Shown here: one piece after another, positions 6,227 through 43,369 of the stretch
Layout of the letters: each line of letters begins with the position of its first letter
Numbering within the stretch: the stretch's first letter is position 1
Sequence record: NC_012223.2
Source: Escherichia phage SSL-2009a
Strand: one strand, 5' to 3'
DNA length: 44,899 bases
Position numbers and translations under genes: made by a program
Notes under the pieces: generated by a model
Databases searched by the model: none
Told to the model about the DNA's origin: nothing
The model's input: the letters and a program-made list of their open reading frames with translations, nothing else

Positions 6227-6250
6227 TGCAACCAATATAGCGCAACCAAT
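6227..6250 (-). promoter_or_regulatory. paired ATTGGTTGC half-sites (minus-strand orientation) upstream of gene 5884-6198
   Basis: tgcaaccaat (6227-6236) and gcaaccaat (6242-6250) on + strand; TATATT between them on the minus strand; member of the recurrent dyad motif family. Confidence 0.45.
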
Positions 6251-6282
6251 TCCAGCAGCGCAAGCGAATTTTGCGATTATTT

Positions 6283-11820: not shown

Positions 11821-12145
11821 CGGAGCGGGACAGGCGGGACGTCCCGTTTTGTCCCGCCACCACTAAACCGCATATATACTCACTTTCATTGCATAAATTA
11901 AAAGCGGGACAGGTGCGCTGTCCCGATCTGTCCCACCCCCAAAATGTGAATATCTATTCGATTTTCGTGCATAAAACAAACGGGACAAAAAGCGGGACAG
12001 AATTGGGCGGGACAAAGCGGGACAGCACCCCTGTCCCCGCCAGTGCTGCCGCGGGTTTTAGCCGATCGGGACAGGCGGGACAAAGCCAAGTCTTTCAGAC
12101 TAGACGGGGGTCAATGGCCCCCCTCGTCTGAGACTGAATAAGGTT
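11821..12145. repeat. iteron/palindrome-rich element A (GCGGGACA units, GGGACAG-N5-CTGTCCC palindromes, terminal GC hairpin)
   Basis: At least 9 direct and 5 inverted copies of GCGGGACA-like units; about 150 bp (11978-12137) nearly identical to 39700-39860; hairpin 12101-12130. Confidence 0.7.
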
Positions 12146-22312: not shown

Positions 22313-22345
22313 GTATTACACCGCTCGACCAGGATTGCAACCAAT
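22313..22345 (-). promoter_or_regulatory. candidate sigma70-type promoter for the lipoprotein gene (extended -35 ATTGGTTGCAAT, -10 TAATAC)
   Basis: On the minus strand: ATTGG-TTGCAA, 16 nt spacer, TAATAC; TTGCAA at 22335-22340, -10 at 22313-22318. Confidence 0.45.
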
Positions 22346-25173: not shown

Positions 25174-25184
25174 GTTTACTATAG

Positions 25185-25206
25185 TGCAACCAACCTATTG
25201 GTTGCA
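25185..25206. promoter_or_regulatory. 22-bp perfect palindrome TGCAACCAA-ccta-TTGGTTGCA (operator-like)
   Basis: Seen directly; overlaps the stop codon of the HAD gene and lies just 5' of gene 24622-25173; TATAGT follows on the minus strand. Confidence 0.55.
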
Positions 25207-25665
25207 AGTGAATTTCGCAACATTTATCGCGTAAATTTTAGGGACCAAATCACCACACGCCCGACGAATTGCCGCGATGTTTTTCTCGCAATCTTCAATG
25301 ATTACCAGTTCCGACACGTCCGCATAGCAGACCATTTTGAACACGGCGCACGCCTTAAACTCTGGCGGCGGGGTGTCGTCCAGCATGTGGCGCATGAATA
25401 ACCGGCCTACCGGGAAGACCTCCAGTTGTTTGGCGGTGGTGTCCCAACATTCTCGCTGCCGGTTGGTCAGATACGCGATCTCGAAACCTTGCTCTTTATA
25501 CATGCGCAGTAGCGGCAGCATATCCATGTTCAGGTCTTCGCGGACGTGCGCCTTGTGCCACTTTGCCCAAAAGGTGGATTTCGTTTTTATCCCCGGCACC
25601 AGGTCGGCGCGCGCATCACTTGAACCGTTAATAACGCCATCCAAATCACAAATCAGTAATTTCAT
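25195..25665 (-). CDS. HAD-superfamily phosphatase (putative nucleotidase)
   Basis: 156 aa; N-terminal LICDLDGV (HAD motif I DxDG); later Lys and acidic motifs compatible with the HAD fold. Confidence 0.6.
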   Translation of the reverse strand: MKLLICDLDGVINGSSDARADLVPGIKTKSTFWAKWHKAHVREDLNMDMLPLLRMYKEQGFEIAYLTNRQRECWDTTAKQLEVFPVGRLFMRHMLDDTPPPEFKACAVFKMVCYADVSELVIIEDCEKNIAAIRRACGDLVPKIYAINVAKFTCNQ

Positions 25666-25886
25666 TTTAAGCTCTCAATAAGGGTGTATCGGGCGCTGCG
25701 CGCGGTGTAAGAGTTGCACACGAAATGACAACGTCGGGTAATGACAAGCCACCCGGTAAGGTCCATACCCAGGAGGTGTTCAGGCCGTGACACGCGACGC
25801 ACACGATCGCGGCGCGGGTCAATGTTATAGTCTTTTTGCATTTGGTCTACGACCGCGTGGTCGCGGTCAACGATTAAGATATTCAT
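25662..25886 (-). CDS. hypothetical small protein
   Basis: 74 aa from ATG 25886 (ORF extends to GTG 25895); overlaps the 3' end of the Dam-like gene by about 20 nt and the HAD start (ATGA). Confidence 0.35.
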   Translation of the reverse strand: MNILIVDRDHAVVDQMQKDYNIDPRRDRVRRVSRPEHLLGMDLTGWLVITRRCHFVCNSYTARSARYTLIESLK

Positions 25887-26352
25887 GTAGCTCACTCTCG
25901 CTCATTATTTCAATCTGTGCGCTGCCGGTGGGCGGCGCTTCGTCAAAGATTATCAATTGCTGGCACTTGTTATTGCTCGGACCGACTTCACCGGTGACTG
26001 CATGTATGAATCGGATCCGCCAGTCCAGAAGAATTATCAGGTTTGCAGTCTTCCGGGCCAGCTTTGCCCACTTCGTCGACGTGTCCTGATTCAGCAGCAT
26101 GACGGTCCGGCGTCCGTGCGCTGCGCACTTAACCCACGGCAGCGGATCGGAATACGGCGGGTTGCACCACTTCCACCCTTTCAACTCTGACCAGTCCGCA
26201 TCGAGCGCGCTGTGCTCTGCCGTGAAGTAACGCGGTAGCAGGTGGTTGGCATCGCTCGCCGCCATGTCATAACGGAATCGGTACTTCCGACGAAGCGGTT
26301 TAAATAAAGCTGGCGGAGTGCGCCAGCCATCTTTTTGCTCACTCTTCTGCAT
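25867..26352 (-). CDS. DNA N6-adenine methyltransferase (phage Dam-like)
   Basis: 161 aa; N-terminal DGWRTPP and catalytic NPPY motif (WCNPPYSD). Confidence 0.75.
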   Translation of the reverse strand: MQKSEQKDGWRTPPALFKPLRRKYRFRYDMAASDANHLLPRYFTAEHSALDADWSELKGWKWCNPPYSDPLPWVKCAAHGRRTVMLLNQDTSTKWAKLARKTANLIILLDWRIRFIHAVTGEVGPSNNKCQQLIIFDEAPPTGSAQIEIMSESELHEYLNR

Positions 26353-26797
26353 GGTCTGGATCTATCGCGTACAGGGCAATTTTCTTATTACTGTTTAGAA
26401 CGCGTTGCACGCGCTTTGATTCCTCGGCGCCGAGCGGTCGGCAGTCGGAGTAGTAAGACCCGTTCCCCCGCCACGCAACCAGCACCAGGTCTTTCCGGTC
26501 AATCTTAGACTGGCGGCCCTTCGGACGCACGTACTCCTCGGCCCGTTTGCAATGCTCACGCAGCCCGTCGGCAGTGATGCGGTTTAGTGCAACGCTGGTG
26601 GTGTATCCGGTGCGCTGCATAATCCCCATCAATTCGAATAGCAGTTCGAAACGCTCCTCTAGCTCCTGGCGCACTTTCTTCTCCCCTTCATATAGCGCCT
26701 GGTTGGTGTCCGCCAACGCGTTCGCACGTTCGGCCTGTTCTCGAGCTTCGAGGCATTGCGCTGCCCAGTAATTTTTCTCTTCTTGTAAAATTTTCAT
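26339..26797 (-). CDS. hypothetical protein with N-terminal coiled coil
   Basis: 152 aa, SD GGAG 9 nt upstream; overlaps Dam start; no catalytic motif recognised. Confidence 0.5.
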   Translation of the reverse strand: MKILQEEKNYWAAQCLEAREQAERANALADTNQALYEGEKKVRQELEERFELLFELMGIMQRTGYTTSVALNRITADGLREHCKRAEEYVRPKGRQSKIDRKDLVLVAWRGNGSYYSDCRPLGAEESKRVQRVLNSNKKIALYAIDPDHAEE

Positions 26798-27040
26798 TTA
26801 TTTAATCTCCGTTGTGCGGATTTCATTGCGTGGAATAAGTTTGCCGCCAATCTCCACCCAGCAGACACCGTAGCGCCATTGGGTATTACGTCCCGTTTGC
26901 TCGGCGTACACGGTCTTGCATTCGTAGCGTTCCGTGTAGTAAATAGCCGTCGAAGGTATGCCAATACAACCGGCAATCATGAGGGTGAGTAGCACCCAAA
27001 ATCGAAGGTCGCCGTCGTAGTCGAAAAATAATGATTTCAT
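26798..27040 (-). CDS. small membrane protein
   Basis: 80 aa, SD GGAGA; one predicted TM helix (FWVLLTLMIAGCIGIPSTAIYY). Confidence 0.45.
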   Translation of the reverse strand: MKSLFFDYDGDLRFWVLLTLMIAGCIGIPSTAIYYTERYECKTVYAEQTGRNTQWRYGVCWVEIGGKLIPRNEIRTTEIK

Positions 27041-27059
27041 CTCACTGTCTCCGGGTATT

Positions 27060-27085
27060 AAAAAGGGCGTCCAAACCGGACACCC
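27060..27085 (-). terminator. intrinsic terminator hairpin on minus strand (between HNH-like gene and membrane protein gene)
   Basis: Minus-strand RNA GGGUGUCC-gguuu-GGACGCCC followed by UUUUU; located immediately downstream of a candidate promoter -10. Confidence 0.45.
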
Positions 27086-27087
27086 TC

Positions 27088-27121
27088 AATATAATGCAAC
27101 CAATATGATTATGCAACCAAT
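27088..27121 (-). promoter_or_regulatory. candidate promoter with two direct ATTGGTTGCAT sites (-35 TTGCAT, 17 nt, -10 TATATT)
   Basis: atgcaaccaat at 27094-27104 and 27111-27121 (+ strand); on the minus strand the first copy supplies TTGCAT, the second fills the spacer, TATATT at 27093-27088. Confidence 0.5.
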
Positions 27122-27444
27122 TTACGCATAAAAGTTAGGGTCGCGCGCAACGTCCACCAAATAGAGATTGCTGATCCGGTTGCCGTAATGGCCTGGCGTG
27201 CGCTGACGGCACACAACGGCAAAGCTGGGGGGATTGTATTGCCAGTCTCAATAATCCACGCCACGCGTGCGCCAGACAGCGTCTTGCCGTTGCATTCGAT
27301 ACGAGTACCGCCATCGGCAGTATTGAGGTTGCCAATCTTGCAGCCGGTGGACTTTAGGCGGATAACGCCTGTTTTGCTGTCGTAGGAAAAAAGCTGATTG
27401 GTCATTGCCACTGAAAAGTCGATGGCGTCGAATGCAGTATTCAT
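27109..27444 (-). CDS. HNH/AP2-like homing-endonuclease-related protein (putative)
   Basis: 111 aa, SD GAGGA; FSYDSKTGVIRLK...IECNGKTLSGARVAW resembles the N-terminal module of free-standing phage HNH endonucleases, but no clear HNH His was identified. Confidence 0.4.
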   Translation of the reverse strand: MNTAFDAIDFSVAMTNQLFSYDSKTGVIRLKSTGCKIGNLNTADGGTRIECNGKTLSGARVAWIIETGNTIPPALPLCAVSARQAITATGSAISIWWTLRATLTFMRKLVA

Positions 27445-28136
27445 TTTAAATTTTCCTCGTTAACCGCTATCGCGAAGCCGCGCGGGGTGAGCGACCTGAT
27501 TAATTTGGTGCGGGCAGATTTGCCTCCGAGGCGACTATACTGCTTCGAGTACCCTTTTTCAACGAATACCGGCTTTTTCTCTGGTATACGGAAGCCGTTG
27601 CCGGTCCATAAGCAGGTCAGCTTCGGATATGAATCGCGGGCGTTGATGTATTCCGGGAAGAGCGGGTGCACGTCATCCTCCGGCAAATAGCCGCCATACT
27701 CCCACGGGTCAAACGAGTGGTCCGGCTTACGCCATTGAGTGGAGAGCACGCTGCGCGGATTCTCAATCATATATGGCACTTCAAAGAAATCACCCAGGTA
27801 AGCGGCGATCTTCGCGGTGCGCACCGCCTTAAGCTGGAAGGCAGGGTCGCGGGCGCGTTTGCGCGGGAAAGCTGGCGCACCGCTCACCGCCAGATCCGTA
27901 CACGGCGGGAATGCGTATATGATATCCGGCGCGCCGAAATCACCATTCATCGCGCGGTCAACGAAGTCCAGGTCGATAAACTCATTACGATATCGAATGC
28001 CGCAACCATAGATCCGGTAATCAAGGTACAACCCGTGATCGGCTTCGGAGTAGTTGAAGCAATAACACTTATGCCCCATCTCGGCAGCACGCTCAATCAT
28101 CAAGCCGCTGCCGTCAAATAATGACCATATAATCAT
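27441..28136 (-). CDS. C5-cytosine DNA methyltransferase-like protein (short, no obvious target-recognition domain)
   Basis: 231 aa; motif I-like LFDGSG, PC motif AFPPCTDLAVSG, ENV-like MIENP; shorter than typical Dcm-class enzymes. Confidence 0.55.
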   Translation of the reverse strand: MIIWSLFDGSGLMIERAAEMGHKCYCFNYSEADHGLYLDYRIYGCGIRYRNEFIDLDFVDRAMNGDFGAPDIIYAFPPCTDLAVSGAPAFPRKRARDPAFQLKAVRTAKIAAYLGDFFEVPYMIENPRSVLSTQWRKPDHSFDPWEYGGYLPEDDVHPLFPEYINARDSYPKLTCLWTGNGFRIPEKKPVFVEKGYSKQYSRLGGKSARTKLIRSLTPRGFAIAVNEENLK

Positions 28137-29593
28137 TTGCGCGCCTTTTTAGCTTTCATGTATTCCATTAGATCGTCCTGGATATCGCGCTTACTGTCGC
28201 GACGCTCGGCGACCAGTTCGTCCAGTGTGCCGCGCGCCTGGATAATGTAGACGAATACTGGACGAGGGTGTCCGGCTTGCATCTGGCGAACTGGCCCGAT
28301 ACGCTCCACGATCTGCGCAAAGTGCTCATAGTTCCAGGTGTCTGAGAAGATAGCAAGGTGGTGTCCGCCATCCTGCAAGTTAAGGCCGTGACCCGCCGAA
28401 GCCGGGTGTGCGAACATGATGGGGATCTCACCCCTGTTCCACGCTTCCATATCCTTATTCCCTTGCTTTCCCTTACCCATCGCGACGCCGTGCGGGAATT
28501 TCTTCTTAAGACGTGCCAAGTCATGCTTGTACTGGTATGCGACGAGCAACGGCGCGCCGTTCAACTCCTCCACGATACTTTCCAGCGCGTCCAGTTTAGC
28601 GTCGTGAATTTTCACCCATTCGTCGGTGCGCTCGCCGTCTTCGTCGACTTTATACACGGCCCCGGAAGCAAGCTGAAGGCACTTAATAGTCTTCGACGCG
28701 GCGTTAGCCGCCTCCACTGTCCCGCTTTCCAGTTCGGCAAATAGCTCCGCTTCGAACTGGTCATAAATCTTGCGGGCTTTCTTCGGCAGGTCCACAACAA
28801 CCGGCGTATAGATCGGCTTGTCACACCCGAAGTATTCAGCCGCGTCAACTGTTAGCGACACGTCGGACAGGCGTTGTTGGATTTCTTTCTCGGAGTTCTT
28901 AAGCGGGGCGTGCTGCATAGTGAAGCTGCCAGGCTTAACAGGCTTGCTAATAAACCAGCGATCCGTGAATGCCTTATAACTACTGCCGAGGCGTTCGCCC
29001 CCGTCGACAAACCACGTCTGGCCCCATAGGTCTTTTAGTCCGTTTGGTGCGGGTGTGCCGGTCAGGTTAATCCAGCGCTTGACGTGCTTATGTGCGATCG
29101 CCGCCAGGGCGCGGGCGCGCTTACTTCCCTGCTTGCTTCTATATCCTTTCAGCTTAGTGGATTCATCGGCAACAACGACCGTAAAGGGCCACTCGTCGCC
29201 GCAATACTCAACAAGCCACTCAACCACATCATAGTTAACACAAACCACGTTAGCGTCGCTCTCAAGCGCAGCGATGCGGTCCTTCTCTGACCCGGTGCCG
29301 TCTACTACCAGCAGGGCGGGGAAGCGCCATTTTTCTTGTTCCGGGGGCCATGTGCCAGATGCAACGCGCAGCGGGGCCAGCACCAGTACGCGGTCCTCCT
29401 GGTTGGACAGGATGCCGGTCTGGAACATTTTATTCAGCGCCCACATGGTCGCGCCTGTTTTACCCGACCCCATTGTCGCCCAAATATTGCAGCGCTTATG
29501 CTTGAGGATGAACGCGGTTATCAACTTCTGATATTCGCGACGTCGGAAACGTGCCATATCTTTATTCCGCCTTTTTCCAGACTTCGGTTTCAC
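28133..29593 (-). CDS. SNF2-family DNA helicase
   Basis: 486 aa; Walker A TMGSGKTG, motif II VVADESTKLK, SNF2 motif III LTGTPAPN, C-terminal helicase motifs; GTG start with SD AAGGA. Confidence 0.8.
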   Translation of the reverse strand: MKPKSGKRRNKDMARFRRREYQKLITAFILKHKRCNIWATMGSGKTGATMWALNKMFQTGILSNQEDRVLVLAPLRVASGTWPPEQEKWRFPALLVVDGTGSEKDRIAALESDANVVCVNYDVVEWLVEYCGDEWPFTVVVADESTKLKGYRSKQGSKRARALAAIAHKHVKRWINLTGTPAPNGLKDLWGQTWFVDGGERLGSSYKAFTDRWFISKPVKPGSFTMQHAPLKNSEKEIQQRLSDVSLTVDAAEYFGCDKPIYTPVVVDLPKKARKIYDQFEAELFAELESGTVEAANAASKTIKCLQLASGAVYKVDEDGERTDEWVKIHDAKLDALESIVEELNGAPLLVAYQYKHDLARLKKKFPHGVAMGKGKQGNKDMEAWNRGEIPIMFAHPASAGHGLNLQDGGHHLAIFSDTWNYEHFAQIVERIGPVRQMQAGHPRPVFVYIIQARGTLDELVAERRDSKRDIQDDLMEYMKAKKARK

Positions 29594-33861: not shown

Positions 33862-33886
33862 TTGGTTGCCAATCTACTTGGTTGCG
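33862..33886 (+). promoter_or_regulatory. two direct TTGGTTGC half-sites (plus-strand orientation) between minus-strand genes
   Basis: cttggttgcc (33861-33870) and cttggttgcg (33877-33886), spaced 16 bp; orientation opposite to the flanking genes. Confidence 0.35.
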
Positions 33887-33895
33887 CCTAAGCGG

Positions 33896-34138
33896 TCAAG
33901 CACTTTCATTAAAAAGATTTCTGGTCACGTAGTTGGTGGCGTTCTCAATCCAGCTTAACGGCGGTCGGTCGATGTTCTTCTCCACCCAGTGGACGGCAGC
34001 GTCACTATATCCGTCATCAAGCCAGCGGGTCGGATGGCGAATCATCCACGCCACCATTAACACGCCTTGCACGCAATGCAGGATAAAGCCCAGCGCGCCG
34101 AGTAAAAACATCAATAAGATTGCAAATACTTTATTCAT
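33896..34138 (-). CDS. small membrane protein (two predicted TM helices)
   Basis: 80 aa, SD GAGGA; hydrophobic segments FAILLMFLLGALGFIL and VLMVAWMI. Confidence 0.45.
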   Translation of the reverse strand: MNKVFAILLMFLLGALGFILHCVQGVLMVAWMIRHPTRWLDDGYSDAAVHWVEKNIDRPPLSWIENATNYVTRNLFNESA

Positions 34139-36805: not shown

Positions 36806-36825
36806 GAAGGGAGTCAACAACTAAT

Positions 36826-36862
36826 TTAAAAAAAAAGCGCCGAAGCAAAATGCGACGGCGCT
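36826..36862 (-). terminator. terminator-like hairpin with A9/T9 tract in the divergent control region
   Basis: AGCGCCG-13 nt loop-CGGCGCT preceded on the + strand by AAAAAAAAA (U-run on the minus-strand transcript); no annotated gene upstream on the minus strand. Confidence 0.35.
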
Positions 36863-36932
36863 AACCAATAAGAGACAATGAGACGGGAGTATTATTACAC
36901 GCGTGCGCGCCCGTTTCAATATTCCAAAGGAG

Positions 36933-36961
36933 TTGACACCCTGCGGTTTTAGGTGTAGTTT
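36933..36961 (+). promoter_or_regulatory. candidate sigma70 promoter for the rightward early operon (TTGACA, 17 nt, TAGTTT)
   Basis: Consensus -35 TTGACA at 36933-36938, 17-nt spacer, weak -10 TAGTTT; about 30 nt upstream of ATG 36993. Confidence 0.4.
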
Positions 36962-36962
36962 C

Positions 36963-36979
36963 GTTGGTCATTAACCAAC
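36963..36979. promoter_or_regulatory. inverted repeat GTTGGT-catta-ACCAAC overlapping the leader of the HTH gene
   Basis: Perfect 6-bp arms; the arm sequence matches the core of the ATTGGTTGCA family. Confidence 0.35.
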
Positions 36980-36992
36980 CGGAGACAGAATA

Positions 36993-37322
36993 ATGAATAT
37001 CAACGACGCAATCGAAATGTTAACTAAGACTGTTTGCAGTGAGACTAGCCGGTCGTGGGCTTATACCGATGCCGTTGGGGCGGTGCTATTTGAGGTCGAG
37101 CGCCTGCGCAGTGTAGAAAAAGAATTACGCGCCAGGCTGGAATTGCTCAACGGTACAGCGGCGAGCAAGCTGCAGAAGCACAATGAAGAAATGGAAGAAT
37201 ATAAAAAACAGGTTATCAGTTTGCGCGCCGAGGGCAAATCCTGGGCGATGATTGCCGAGTTGACCGGAATTAATCAGAGCACAGTGCGCTCCTGGGTACG
37301 CAATAATAAAACTTCTAAGTAA
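36993..37322 (+). CDS. helix-turn-helix DNA-binding protein (putative transcriptional regulator)
   Basis: 109 aa, SD GGAGA; C-terminal HTH-like segment SWAMIAELTGINQSTVRSWV. Confidence 0.55.
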   Translation: MNINDAIEMLTKTVCSETSRSWAYTDAVGAVLFEVERLRSVEKELRARLELLNGTAASKLQKHNEEMEEYKKQVISLRAEGKSWAMIAELTGINQSTVRSWVRNNKTSK

Positions 37323-39699: not shown

Positions 39700-39860
39700 G
39701 TAAGCGGGACAAAAAGCGGGACAAACCAGGGGCGGGACAAAGCGGGACAGCACCCCTGTCCCACCCCGGATGACGCGGCCTGGCGGGGAGCGGGACAGGC
39801 GGGACAACTCCCAGTCTTTCAGACTAGACGGGGGTCAGCGGCCCCCCTCGTCTGAGACTG
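39700..39860. repeat. iteron/palindrome-rich element B (second copy of the 150-bp GCGGGACA element; putative origin-associated)
   Basis: Six direct GCGGGACA units, one GGGACAG-cacccc-CTGTCCC palindrome, and the same terminal hairpin as locus A; near-identical to 11978-12137. Confidence 0.7.
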
Positions 39861-40014: not shown

Positions 40015-40055
40015 ATTGGTTGCATTCGTGCCAGCACCCTGCTAGATTGGTTGCA
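40015..40055 (+). promoter_or_regulatory. candidate promoter/operator (ATTGGTTGCAT as -35, TAGATT -10, second ATTGGTTGCA over -10/+1)
   Basis: TTGCAT 40020-40025, 17 nt, TAGATT 40043-40048; second motif copy 40046-40055; SD GAGGA 40065-40069; ATG 40077. Confidence 0.5.
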
Positions 40056-40076
40056 CACCAACATGAGGACTGAACA

Positions 40077-43297: not shown

Positions 43298-43324
43298 AGC
43301 CCGGATAATACCGGGCTTTTTATT
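43298..43324 (+). terminator. rho-independent terminator after Ig-like gene
   Basis: GCCCGG-ataata-CCGGGC followed by TTTTTATT. Confidence 0.6.
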
Positions 43325-43331
43325 GCTTGAC

Positions 43332-43369
43332 TTGCAACCAACATAGGGGCCATACTGCAACCAACCAAT
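43332..43369. promoter_or_regulatory. two TGCAACCAA motif copies (reverse orientation)
   Basis: ttgcaaccaa 43332-43341 and tgcaaccaaccaat 43356-43369, just upstream of the micro-ORF SD. Confidence 0.4.

Follow-up and report, generated by a model that had tools for sequence, protein, structure and literature searches.

How can a promoter serve the genes behind an intrinsic terminator when it is placed in front of that terminator and not after it? The question is raised by a short segment of Escherichia phage SSL-2009a (sequence record NC_012223.2), located on the minus strand at positions 27060-27121 of the 44,899-nt stretch that was analysed (hereafter the window). The window is the complete or near-complete genome of a Dhillonvirus, a siphophage of E. 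coli. The segment forms most of a junction of about 80 bp between two genes, in which a predicted sigma-70-type promoter and a predicted intrinsic terminator overlap by about 5 bp. An original prediction for this DNA proposed that transcripts initiated at the promoter begin inside the 5' arm of the terminator hairpin and escape termination, while those reading through from the upstream gene end there. The downstream membrane-protein and Dam-like genes would thereby be uncoupled from the read-through. All of the elements that the prediction listed could be located on the minus strand of 27060-27121, and its reading of them is supported in part. The complete chain put forward here, namely a conserved compact junction with a regulated promoter that overlaps a terminator and with restarted transcripts that escape termination, is given about an even chance on the evidence of the sequence.

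The layout of the junction is listed below, in the direction of transcription. Conservation was scored column by column in 22 distinct aligned genomes, to which all counts out of 22 refer.

27112..27121, minus strand: copy 1 of the motif ATTGGTTGCA; overlaps the -35-like hexamer TTGCAT (27116-27111)
27110-27094, minus strand: 17-nt spacer from TTGCAT to TATATT; holds copy 2
27105..27110, minus strand: six hypervariable nucleotides between the motif copies; free sequence, constant length
27095..27104, minus strand: copy 2 of ATTGGTTGCA; placed within the promoter spacer, 1 nt short of the -10
27088..27093, minus strand: -10-like hexamer TATATT; TATCTT in 5 of the 22 relatives
27065..27085, minus strand: terminator hairpin; GGGTGTCC (27085-27078), loop GGTTT, GGACGCCC (27072-27065)
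27080..27082, minus strand: predicted transcription start, in the hairpin 5' arm; best guess G27081, inferred from the sigma-70 start rules
27060..27064, minus strand: U-tract T5, followed by AAT; T5 to T9 in relatives
27038..27052, minus strand: Shine-Dalgarno GGAG (27052-27049) and ATG (27040-27038) of an 80-amino-acid open reading frame (ORF)

The hairpin and the U-run are, with good confidence, an intrinsic terminator. The hairpin is the centroid structure of the region (-14.4 kcal/mol). Its stem of 8 bp (6 G-C, 1 A-U and 1 G-U) encloses a 5-nt loop and can be extended by A27086-U27064 and G27087-U27063. Stem and loop are of the kind found in intrinsic terminators (a G+C-rich stem of about 5-14 bp, a loop of 3-8 nt). 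The T5 abuts the stem 58 nt past the stop codon of the upstream gene, and such a tail is present on the coding (minus) strand only. The proposed hairpin with U5 within a few bases of the -10 is thereby borne out: an 8-bp G+C-rich stem begins 2 nt past the -10 and is followed by T5. A terminator has also been annotated at this hairpin in the GenBank records of WFI and CS16. Nine hairpin variants occur among the relatives, all with folding energies of -11.6 to -16.3 kcal/mol, all 2 nt past the -10 and all abutting T5 to T9. A paired T:A insertion (GGGTGTTCC-GAAG-GGAACGCCC) is found in three of the 22 genomes (Sloth, Opt212 and LM40P1), where the pairing is kept; three other genomes carry wobble substitutions and there is one bulged recombinant, all of which fold. 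The structure is thus maintained across the variants, at a diversity too low for a formal covariation statistic. A search of Rfam was negative, both for the whole window (gathering thresholds) and for 26950-27250 with E values up to 1 allowed.

Two further structural candidates were considered and dropped. A conserved pairing between UCCGG (27080-27076) and CCGGA (27054-27050), with the potential to cover the ribosome-binding site, does not persist in the divergent clade. Other adjacencies of promoter and hairpin in the window (30034 and 25183) involve hairpins that are without U-runs or are not conserved. The overlap of a promoter with a true terminator is therefore unique to this locus.

The sigma-70-type promoter at the junction is probably genuine, if modest. 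A promoter dedicated to the downstream genes must lie 5' of the terminator, because only 19 nt separate the U-run from the ATG, the ribosome-binding site included. TATATT matches the consensus TATAAT in five of six positions and TTGCAT matches TTGACA in three (the TTG alone), which amounts to 8 of 12. The distance between both hexamers is exactly 17 bp in all 22 genomes. The -10 carries the A of position 2 and the T of position 6 that are typical of TATAAT-like hexamers; its positions 1, 2, 3, 5 and 6 are invariant and position 4 alone varies, being A or C. What goes beyond chance, as far as the sequence can tell, is the conservation pattern together with the genome-wide recurrence of the motif, and not the hexamers.

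Other promoter readings of the same bases were rejected. The alternative -10 CATAAT (27113-27108, in copy 1) is not conserved and reads CATAAG, CGTAAT, CATAAC, CATAGT or CAGTAC in relatives. Copy 2 does not qualify as the -35 of a second promoter: no -10-like hexamer is found 16-18 bp downstream, where the sequence is GTTTGG. A sigma-54 reading of TTGG...TTGCA fails on the GG-to-GC spacing. On the opposite strand, a perfect TATAAT is present at 27090-27095 (plus); its complement ATTATA (27095-27090) shares bases with the -10. The sequence at its -35 (GCGTCC) is not usable, a TG extension is lacking, and variants with TATCTT have GATAAT in its place. This plus-strand hexamer is probably a by-product, the alternative being a weak antisense start into the upstream HNH-like gene.

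Whether the promoter escapes its own terminator depends on the start site. Transcription from a sigma-70 promoter is expected to start 7 nt past the -10, at a purine that follows a pyrimidine. At the junction this is G27081, with T27082 before it; G27081 occupies position five of the 8-nt 5' arm. For each possible start position, the RNA that exists when the polymerase reaches the U-run was folded. An RNA starting at or upstream of 27085 forms the full stem (about -14 kcal/mol). One starting at 27082 or 27081 is left with a 4-bp stem (-5.2 and -5.4 kcal/mol) that stops 4 nt short of the U-run. From 27080 at most 4 bp are kept (no stronger than -5.4 kcal/mol), and with starts still further downstream virtually no stem is left. 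With only a 4-bp stem, separated from the U-run, the promoter-derived RNA should escape termination. Provided that the promoter is functional, a start inside the hairpin 5' arm is very likely. The geometric part of the original prediction stands in all 22 genomes, while the start itself is a predicted one. A start upstream of the complete hairpin, named in advance as the outcome that would speak against it, is impossible from this -10, because the hexamer ends 2 nt before the stem.

The junction is also strongly conserved. The region 26300-28200 has matches in 156 phage records, with phage BF9 as the closest (92.6%), and a 67-nt module that comprises the junction was found in 156 of 156 Dhillonvirus records. 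Compared with the window, the module is at least 99% identical in 22 records, 95-99% in 71, 90-95% in 48 and 80-90% in 15. For an 801-nt region that includes the flanking genes, the respective numbers are 3 records at 95-99%, 49 at 90-95%, 91 at 80-90% and 13 at 60-80%. At a threshold of 95% identity, 93 records are retained for the module versus 3 for the 801-nt region. The noncoding module is better conserved than the coding DNA around it.

Within the module the conservation is unevenly distributed. From the stop codon of the upstream gene into copy 1, 27124-27113 show no variation; A27112, the last base of the copy, is conserved in 91% of the genomes. Copy 2 is conserved at 95-100%, and GGGTGT and the T-run are invariant. 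Between the two copies, at 27105-27110, the majority base reaches only 55-91%, with up to three bases per column and zero indels. A freely varying segment of fixed length between conserved elements is as predicted for a promoter with fixed spacing plus a terminator. The conservation of copy 2, which lies in the spacer, needs a separate explanation, as a plain sigma-70 promoter is insufficient to account for it. The ribosome-binding site is GGAGAC throughout the main clade, whatever gene follows, and GAGGAT in the divergent clade.

A separate explanation may be offered by the motif itself. The original prediction regarded the promoter as built from two direct motif copies. Both copies are indeed present, 17 bp apart, and they turn out to belong to a genome-wide family of about 21 sites. 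The extended form TTGGTTGCAT has 17 matches in the window at no more than one mismatch, against 3.06 expected. The 8-nt core TTGGTTGC occurs in 21 exact copies in the window, 20 in WFI and 21 in SO-1, at syntenic positions, and ATTGGTTGC is the second most frequent 9-mer of the window. All motif information is confined to the 10-mer aTTGGTTGCa. In WFI, 16 of the 20 copies lie in the 7.7% of the genome that is noncoding by GenBank annotation (binomial P about 6e-15). Most copies are paired (6249/6235, 25193/25198, 27120/27103, 33862/33878, 39610/39645, 40016/40047 and 43364/43341).

Relative to where the core starts, hexamers resembling a -10 recur at three constant offsets. At +27 the motif provides a TTGCAx -35 with a 17-bp spacer (27120, 40016, 30061 and 22344); at +10 it lies within the spacer (27103, 25193 and 6249); and at -4 the -10 overlaps the motif start (6235, 40047, 36797 and others). 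Motif-bearing sites also precede an isolated leftward gene at 22344 and, within the rightward structural block, a leftward operon at 6249. These two sites must be promoters, because an isolated leftward gene or operon needs its own. The following promoter-like sites carry the motif in pairs.

25178..25207, minus strand: TTGCAA-18-TATAGT; everted pair 25193 (minus) and 25198 (plus); syntenic in WFI and SO-1
6228..6263, minus strand: TTGCGC-18-TATATT; copies at 6249 and 6235; heads a leftward operon
40016..40062, plus strand: TTGCAT-17-TAGATT; one copy over the -35 and one at the start site (TTGGTTGCACACCAAC)
33862..33899, minus strand: TTGACC-17-TAGATT (33899-33871); two reverse copies, one in the spacer and one just past the -10
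43327-43356: TTGACT-18-CATACT; preceded by a plus-strand terminator (43298-43325) and overlapped by the reverse pair 43341/43364

Since the motif overlaps core promoters at variable positions and in either orientation, it looks like an operator and not like a promoter element. The genome-wide family in turn implies that the junction is regulated by a factor. The two junction copies are predicted to be a pair of regulator sites laid over the promoter, and the family is counted as indirect evidence for that promoter. In the literature, no description was found of Dhillonvirus promoters or of the ATTGGTTGCA motif.

From these elements, the following mechanism can be proposed. The hairpin at 27085-27065 with its U-run would end, and probably stabilise, the transcripts of the upstream helicase, Dcm-like and HNH-like genes. 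Directly before this terminator, the sigma-70-type TTGCAT-17-TATATT would direct a new start, with the hairpin 5' arm serving as discriminator and start site. Initiation at about G27081 would give an RNA that is without the GGGU of the stem and that continues into the 80-amino-acid ORF, a 152-amino-acid ORF, Dam and beyond. These transcripts would run up to the next motif-bearing promoter-like site (25207-25178). The two motif copies would bind a factor that controls this promoter and at least eight other promoter-like sites. The factor is most likely a phage-encoded repressor, so that upstream transcription would always be terminated and the restart would occur only when the factor allows it. 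Its identification with a 109-amino-acid helix-turn-helix protein (36993-37322) is speculative. The broadest version holds that ATTGGTTGCA marks a Dhillonvirus-wide regulon not described before, with a phage protein, perhaps the helix-turn-helix one, sitting on site pairs over core promoters and the junction acting as a switchable valve that lets Dam and the accessory genes just behind it follow a timing of their own, apart from the upstream replication genes; this is a tentative proposal that is rather unlikely to hold in full. More speculative still is the idea that polymerase, once set free at the terminator some 20 bp past the start, is recycled onto the promoter.

Several points weigh against this mechanism. 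A consensus scan of the window listed neither this promoter nor this terminator. The terminator was probably missed since the maximal stem extension consumes two T's of the tail. For the promoter, the -35 with its three matches falls under the scanner's threshold despite the exact 17-bp spacing, and the term near-consensus that had been applied to it was overstated. A TTGnnn followed after 17 bp by a -10 of at least 5/6 is found five times in the window versus 3.0 +/- 1.8 times in simulated sequence, and the hexamer pair alone consequently proves nothing. The divergence within the family is low (at least about 74% identity), which limits the depth of all conservation arguments. Read-through polymerases will still run over a promoter that is placed upstream of the terminator, which makes the insulation incomplete. 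The varied positions of the motif could also mean activation, or a function unrelated to transcription. Finally, motif and candidate protein do not co-vary: in a relative whose homologue is 61% identical, the helix-turn-helix barely differs and the motif is the same.

These points lead to the rival explanations. It is possible, though unlikely, that the junction consists of a terminator and protein-binding sites without any promoter. The terminator would then be a leaky one within the operon and the downstream genes would be expressed by read-through only. The motif pair would serve as a roadblock, in antitermination loading or in nucleoid or replication organisation, and TATATT would be conserved as part of the binding site or as upstream context of the terminator. 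The weak -35, hexamers that are not above chance and the silence of the scanner all agree with this, as does the conservation of copy 2, which a plain promoter does not need; moreover, the WFI annotation has many intra-operon terminators without adjacent promoters. What argues for a promoter nevertheless is that the -10 varies in the tolerated way, at position 4 alone, that the same offsets between motif and -10 recur at sites that are obliged to be promoters, and that the copy spacing is fixed, with TTGCAT exactly 17 bp from the -10 in 22 of 22 genomes. A real promoter is also part of a somewhat less probable alternative, in which ATTGGTTGCA is an activator or sigma-appropriation box, in principle like the MotA box of T4, that replaces the weak -35 for middle genes. 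The restart would be timed rather than repressible: the sign of the regulation changes and the architecture stays the same. Such a box should keep to a single position and a single orientation. Copies of ATTGGTTGCA are indeed found at four sites where they supply a poor TTGCAx -35 exactly 17 bp from the -10, and the phage encodes a small protein that matches Sigma70_r4_2 and other helix-turn-helix families, but others are placed in the spacer, across the start site or, in reverse orientation, at good -35s (TTGACC and TTGACT).

The remaining two explanations concern the hairpin. That it is mainly an element of RNA stability or processing (a 3'-end protector or an RNase target), with the adjacent promoter as a by-product of compaction, is improbable. 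Phage operons do carry many such hairpins and the U-run is only five long in most genomes; yet in every genome this run directly adjoins the stem and has five or more T's, the strand asymmetry fits leftward termination only, and stem, loop and tail are canonical. Least credible, and only a very slim chance, is a leader or attenuator in the style of lambda pR'-tR', where the complete hairpin is transcribed from the promoter to give a short RNA or regulated read-through. For this the conserved -10 is placed wrongly, ending 2 nt before the stem, and CATAAT (27113-27108) is the only upstream alternative and is not conserved. Promoter-then-terminator leaders as such do exist in phages (PMC10914365), and one is present in this genome at 36919. 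A regulated promoter that overlaps a terminator is retained as the preferred reading of the junction.

The genes around the junction belong to a leftward early and replication block, which runs from about 36820 down to 24005 and contains the junction. The annotations of the two complete relatives that were examined (WFI and SO-1) include no RNA polymerase gene, so the phage presumably relies on the host enzyme; nor do they include an integrase. The immediate neighbours are listed below.

27122..27444, minus strand: HNH-like gene, 107 amino acids in relatives; degenerate HNH_3; stop codon TAA at 27124-27122
26798..27040, minus strand: 80-amino-acid ORF, ATG at 27040-27038; accessory; phrog_18961
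26339-26797, minus strand: 152-amino-acid ORF, downstream of the junction
25867-26352, minus strand: Dam gene (PF05869, E = 5e-36), downstream of the junction

The neighbourhood is as originally described, with an HNH-like gene upstream, an ORF with a hydrophobic segment downstream and, further on, Dam. The HNH-like gene matches HNH_3 at E = 0.077, below the cut-off, and phrog_99 (HNH endonuclease) at 2.5e-16. It was considered as a mobile cassette with its own signals, and this was rejected: both gene and module are present in 156 of 156 records and are therefore core. In the window, a 1-nt deletion at 27224-27226 (minus), relative to JL1, WFI and HK578, changes CCCCCCAGGC to CCCCCCAGC and shifts the frame of the gene, and the shifted ORF now extends to 27109, into motif copy 1. 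This could be a real pseudogene or a sequencing error adjoining a C6 run. The best consensus promoter match in a 15-kb scan, TTGAAA-17-TATAGT (10/12) at 27534-27562 (minus), lies inside the Dcm-like gene, about 90 nt 5' of the HNH-like start codon, and is free of the motif.

Downstream, the gene content is variable. The 80-amino-acid ORF has one hydrophobic segment (Kyte-Doolittle mean 1.9 over 19 amino acids). This ORF, exactly 243 nt long, is missing in about half of the 156 records, with about 80 records showing a 243-nt gap. The gene directly behind the module is the 80-amino-acid ORF in the window, the 152-amino-acid ORF in JL1 and Dam in HK578, which has neither of both ORFs; the module is kept in each case. 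The break points in gene content fall at the ribosome-binding site and ATG. By comparison of 26339-27040 of the window with JL1 and HK578, the junction adjoins a hot spot of gene gain and loss. The position of the module upstream of such a variable spot suggests that newly acquired genes land behind a ready-made promoter.

The candidate regulator is encoded elsewhere, beside a divergent early control region.

36993-37322, plus strand: 109-amino-acid helix-turn-helix protein, candidate trans-acting factor; first gene of the rightward operon

This protein matches Sigma70_r4_2 (2.6e-6), HTH_23 and HTH_28, and within the phage collection it is confined to Dhillonviruses. Its GenBank labels conflict: transposase, resolvase, Gam-like nuclease inhibitor and helix-turn-helix protein. 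Among its homologues, residues 47-106 are almost invariant, and the N-terminal 45 residues or so come in at least four unrelated versions. The AlphaFold model (pLDDT 88.5) displays a long helix followed by a C-terminal helix-turn-helix. Fold matches in the PDB are generic and local, to helix-turn-helix units only (all E > 0.6), and a PDB sequence search was uninformative. A metagenomic relative has a homologue of 61% overall identity with an almost unchanged helix-turn-helix; there, ATTGGTTGC is the top 9-mer, with seven copies in 6.1 kb that are again paired. An invariant recognition helix that is matched with an invariant site fits these data. As the binder of ATTGGTTGCA, the protein is the leading candidate, albeit a speculative one.

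Features of this control region deserve mention as well. Upstream of the helix-turn-helix gene, at 36934-36979 (plus), a rightward promoter-like TTGACA-17-TAGTTT with a perfect -35 is followed by the palindrome TTGGTCATTAACCAAC (36964-36979). The start regions at 6235 and 40047 (TTGGTTGCACACCAAC) share the TTGGT-N5-ACCAAC shape of this palindrome. Recognition of a symmetric site by the regulator is thus possible too, as is autoregulation. A second promoter-then-terminator arrangement is located at 36822-36919 (minus), where TTGAAA (36919-36914)-17-AATAAT (36896-36891) precedes a complete strong terminator, GCGCCG...CGGCGC with T9 (-16.2 kcal/mol, z = -3.6). The region is 95% conserved in both WFI and SO-1. 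From the arrangement a leader or other RNA of about 55 nt is predicted, which could be a small RNA or an antitermination target. The arrangement is followed by a further leftward promoter-like TTGACT-17-TAATAT, with a reverse motif copy in its spacer.

Two other repeat families were observed. The repeat AGCGGGACA / GCGGGACA, with 10 and 18 copies in the window of which the majority are on the plus strand, forms clusters at 11824-12075 and 39703-39799. They correspond to two repeat regions of Sodalis phage SO-1 that are annotated as 'region A' and 'region B'. Three motif variants of the form CGCATTGGTTGCC (39610, 39645 and 39932) lie beside the second cluster. The clusters may be origin or packaging repeats. 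The most frequent 9-mer of the window is ACGGCAGCG, with 16 copies (12 on the plus strand, e.g. 1506, 2329, 3835, 15747, 16551 and 23262) scattered through coding regions; codon usage and a Chi-like or other oriented signal are candidate causes.

If the start lies in the terminator stem, one segment of about 80 bp would end one transcript and launch another, with the same bases serving in either role. Such a start would also extend the start-in-hairpin principle known from T4 from translation to termination, and provide a useful compact part for the design of phages and synthetic circuits. The ATTGGTTGCA sites are a testable entry into the unstudied transcription programme of the Dhillonviruses, which are widely used in research on anti-phage defence (BASEL and SECphi collections). 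The junction itself is a neat and fairly ordinary case of compact phage gene control, and current understanding is not overturned by it.

How, then, does the junction compare with known systems? Nothing specific was found in the literature on a promoter inside a terminator stem. The stoperators of mycobacteriophages L5 and Bxb1 are short asymmetric sites that occur in about 20-30 copies per genome, intergenic and in some cases over promoters; they have a single orientation and belong to temperate phages with a known repressor. Like these, ATTGGTTGCA is intergenic and present in many copies, 21, 20 and 21 in the three genomes. Unlike stoperators, its copies do not keep a single orientation (33862/33878 and 43341/43364 are reversed and 25193/25198 is everted) and lie mostly in pairs over core promoters, and the binder is only a candidate protein.

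A conventional insulated junction consists of a terminator and then a promoter. Such a junction is present in this genome as well, in the plus-strand terminator at 43298-43325 that is followed by TTGACT-18-CATACT. The junction at 27060-27121 likewise ends one transcript and starts the next within a single intergenic region. In contrast to the conventional type, the order is reversed and the two elements overlap by about 5 bp, which saves some 30-40 bp and leaves the promoter exposed to read-through. The promoter-proximal terminator and leader of lambda, pR'-tR', has the same order as the junction. In Pseudomonas phages, 42 terminators in 5' untranslated regions were mapped by ONT-cappable-seq (PMC10914365). 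The junction resembles both in that a promoter is followed by a terminator within tens of bases. However, leader systems transcribe the complete hairpin, with read-through by antitermination or by chance, whereas the start at the junction is predicted to truncate it. A complete hairpin transcribed from the adjacent promoter, the mark of an attenuator, is not found at the junction.

In T4, late promoters are located inside inhibitory hairpins of I-TevI, I-TevII, I-TevIII, segB and the genes e and soc (PMC2988022). These hairpins hide the ribosome-binding site, and the promoter-derived transcripts are without the inhibitory structure that is formed by transcripts initiated upstream (PMC2988022). 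The same principle applies at the junction, where the promoter-derived RNA would miss a part of the hairpin that forms in longer transcripts. A start in the 5' arm and a hairpin that cannot form from it, as in a hairpin-embedded promoter, are displayed here by geometry only: the T4 start sites were mapped, whereas that of the junction is predicted from sequence. The T4 promoters are gp55-dependent late promoters and the junction promoter is of the sigma-70 type. Furthermore, the hairpin of the junction is a predicted intrinsic terminator and its ribosome-binding site lies outside, with the GGAG 8 nt past the U-run. The junction therefore works like the T4 class and is yet not a member of it. 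By analogy, the T4 late promoters in hairpins are the closest precedent for the logic of the junction.

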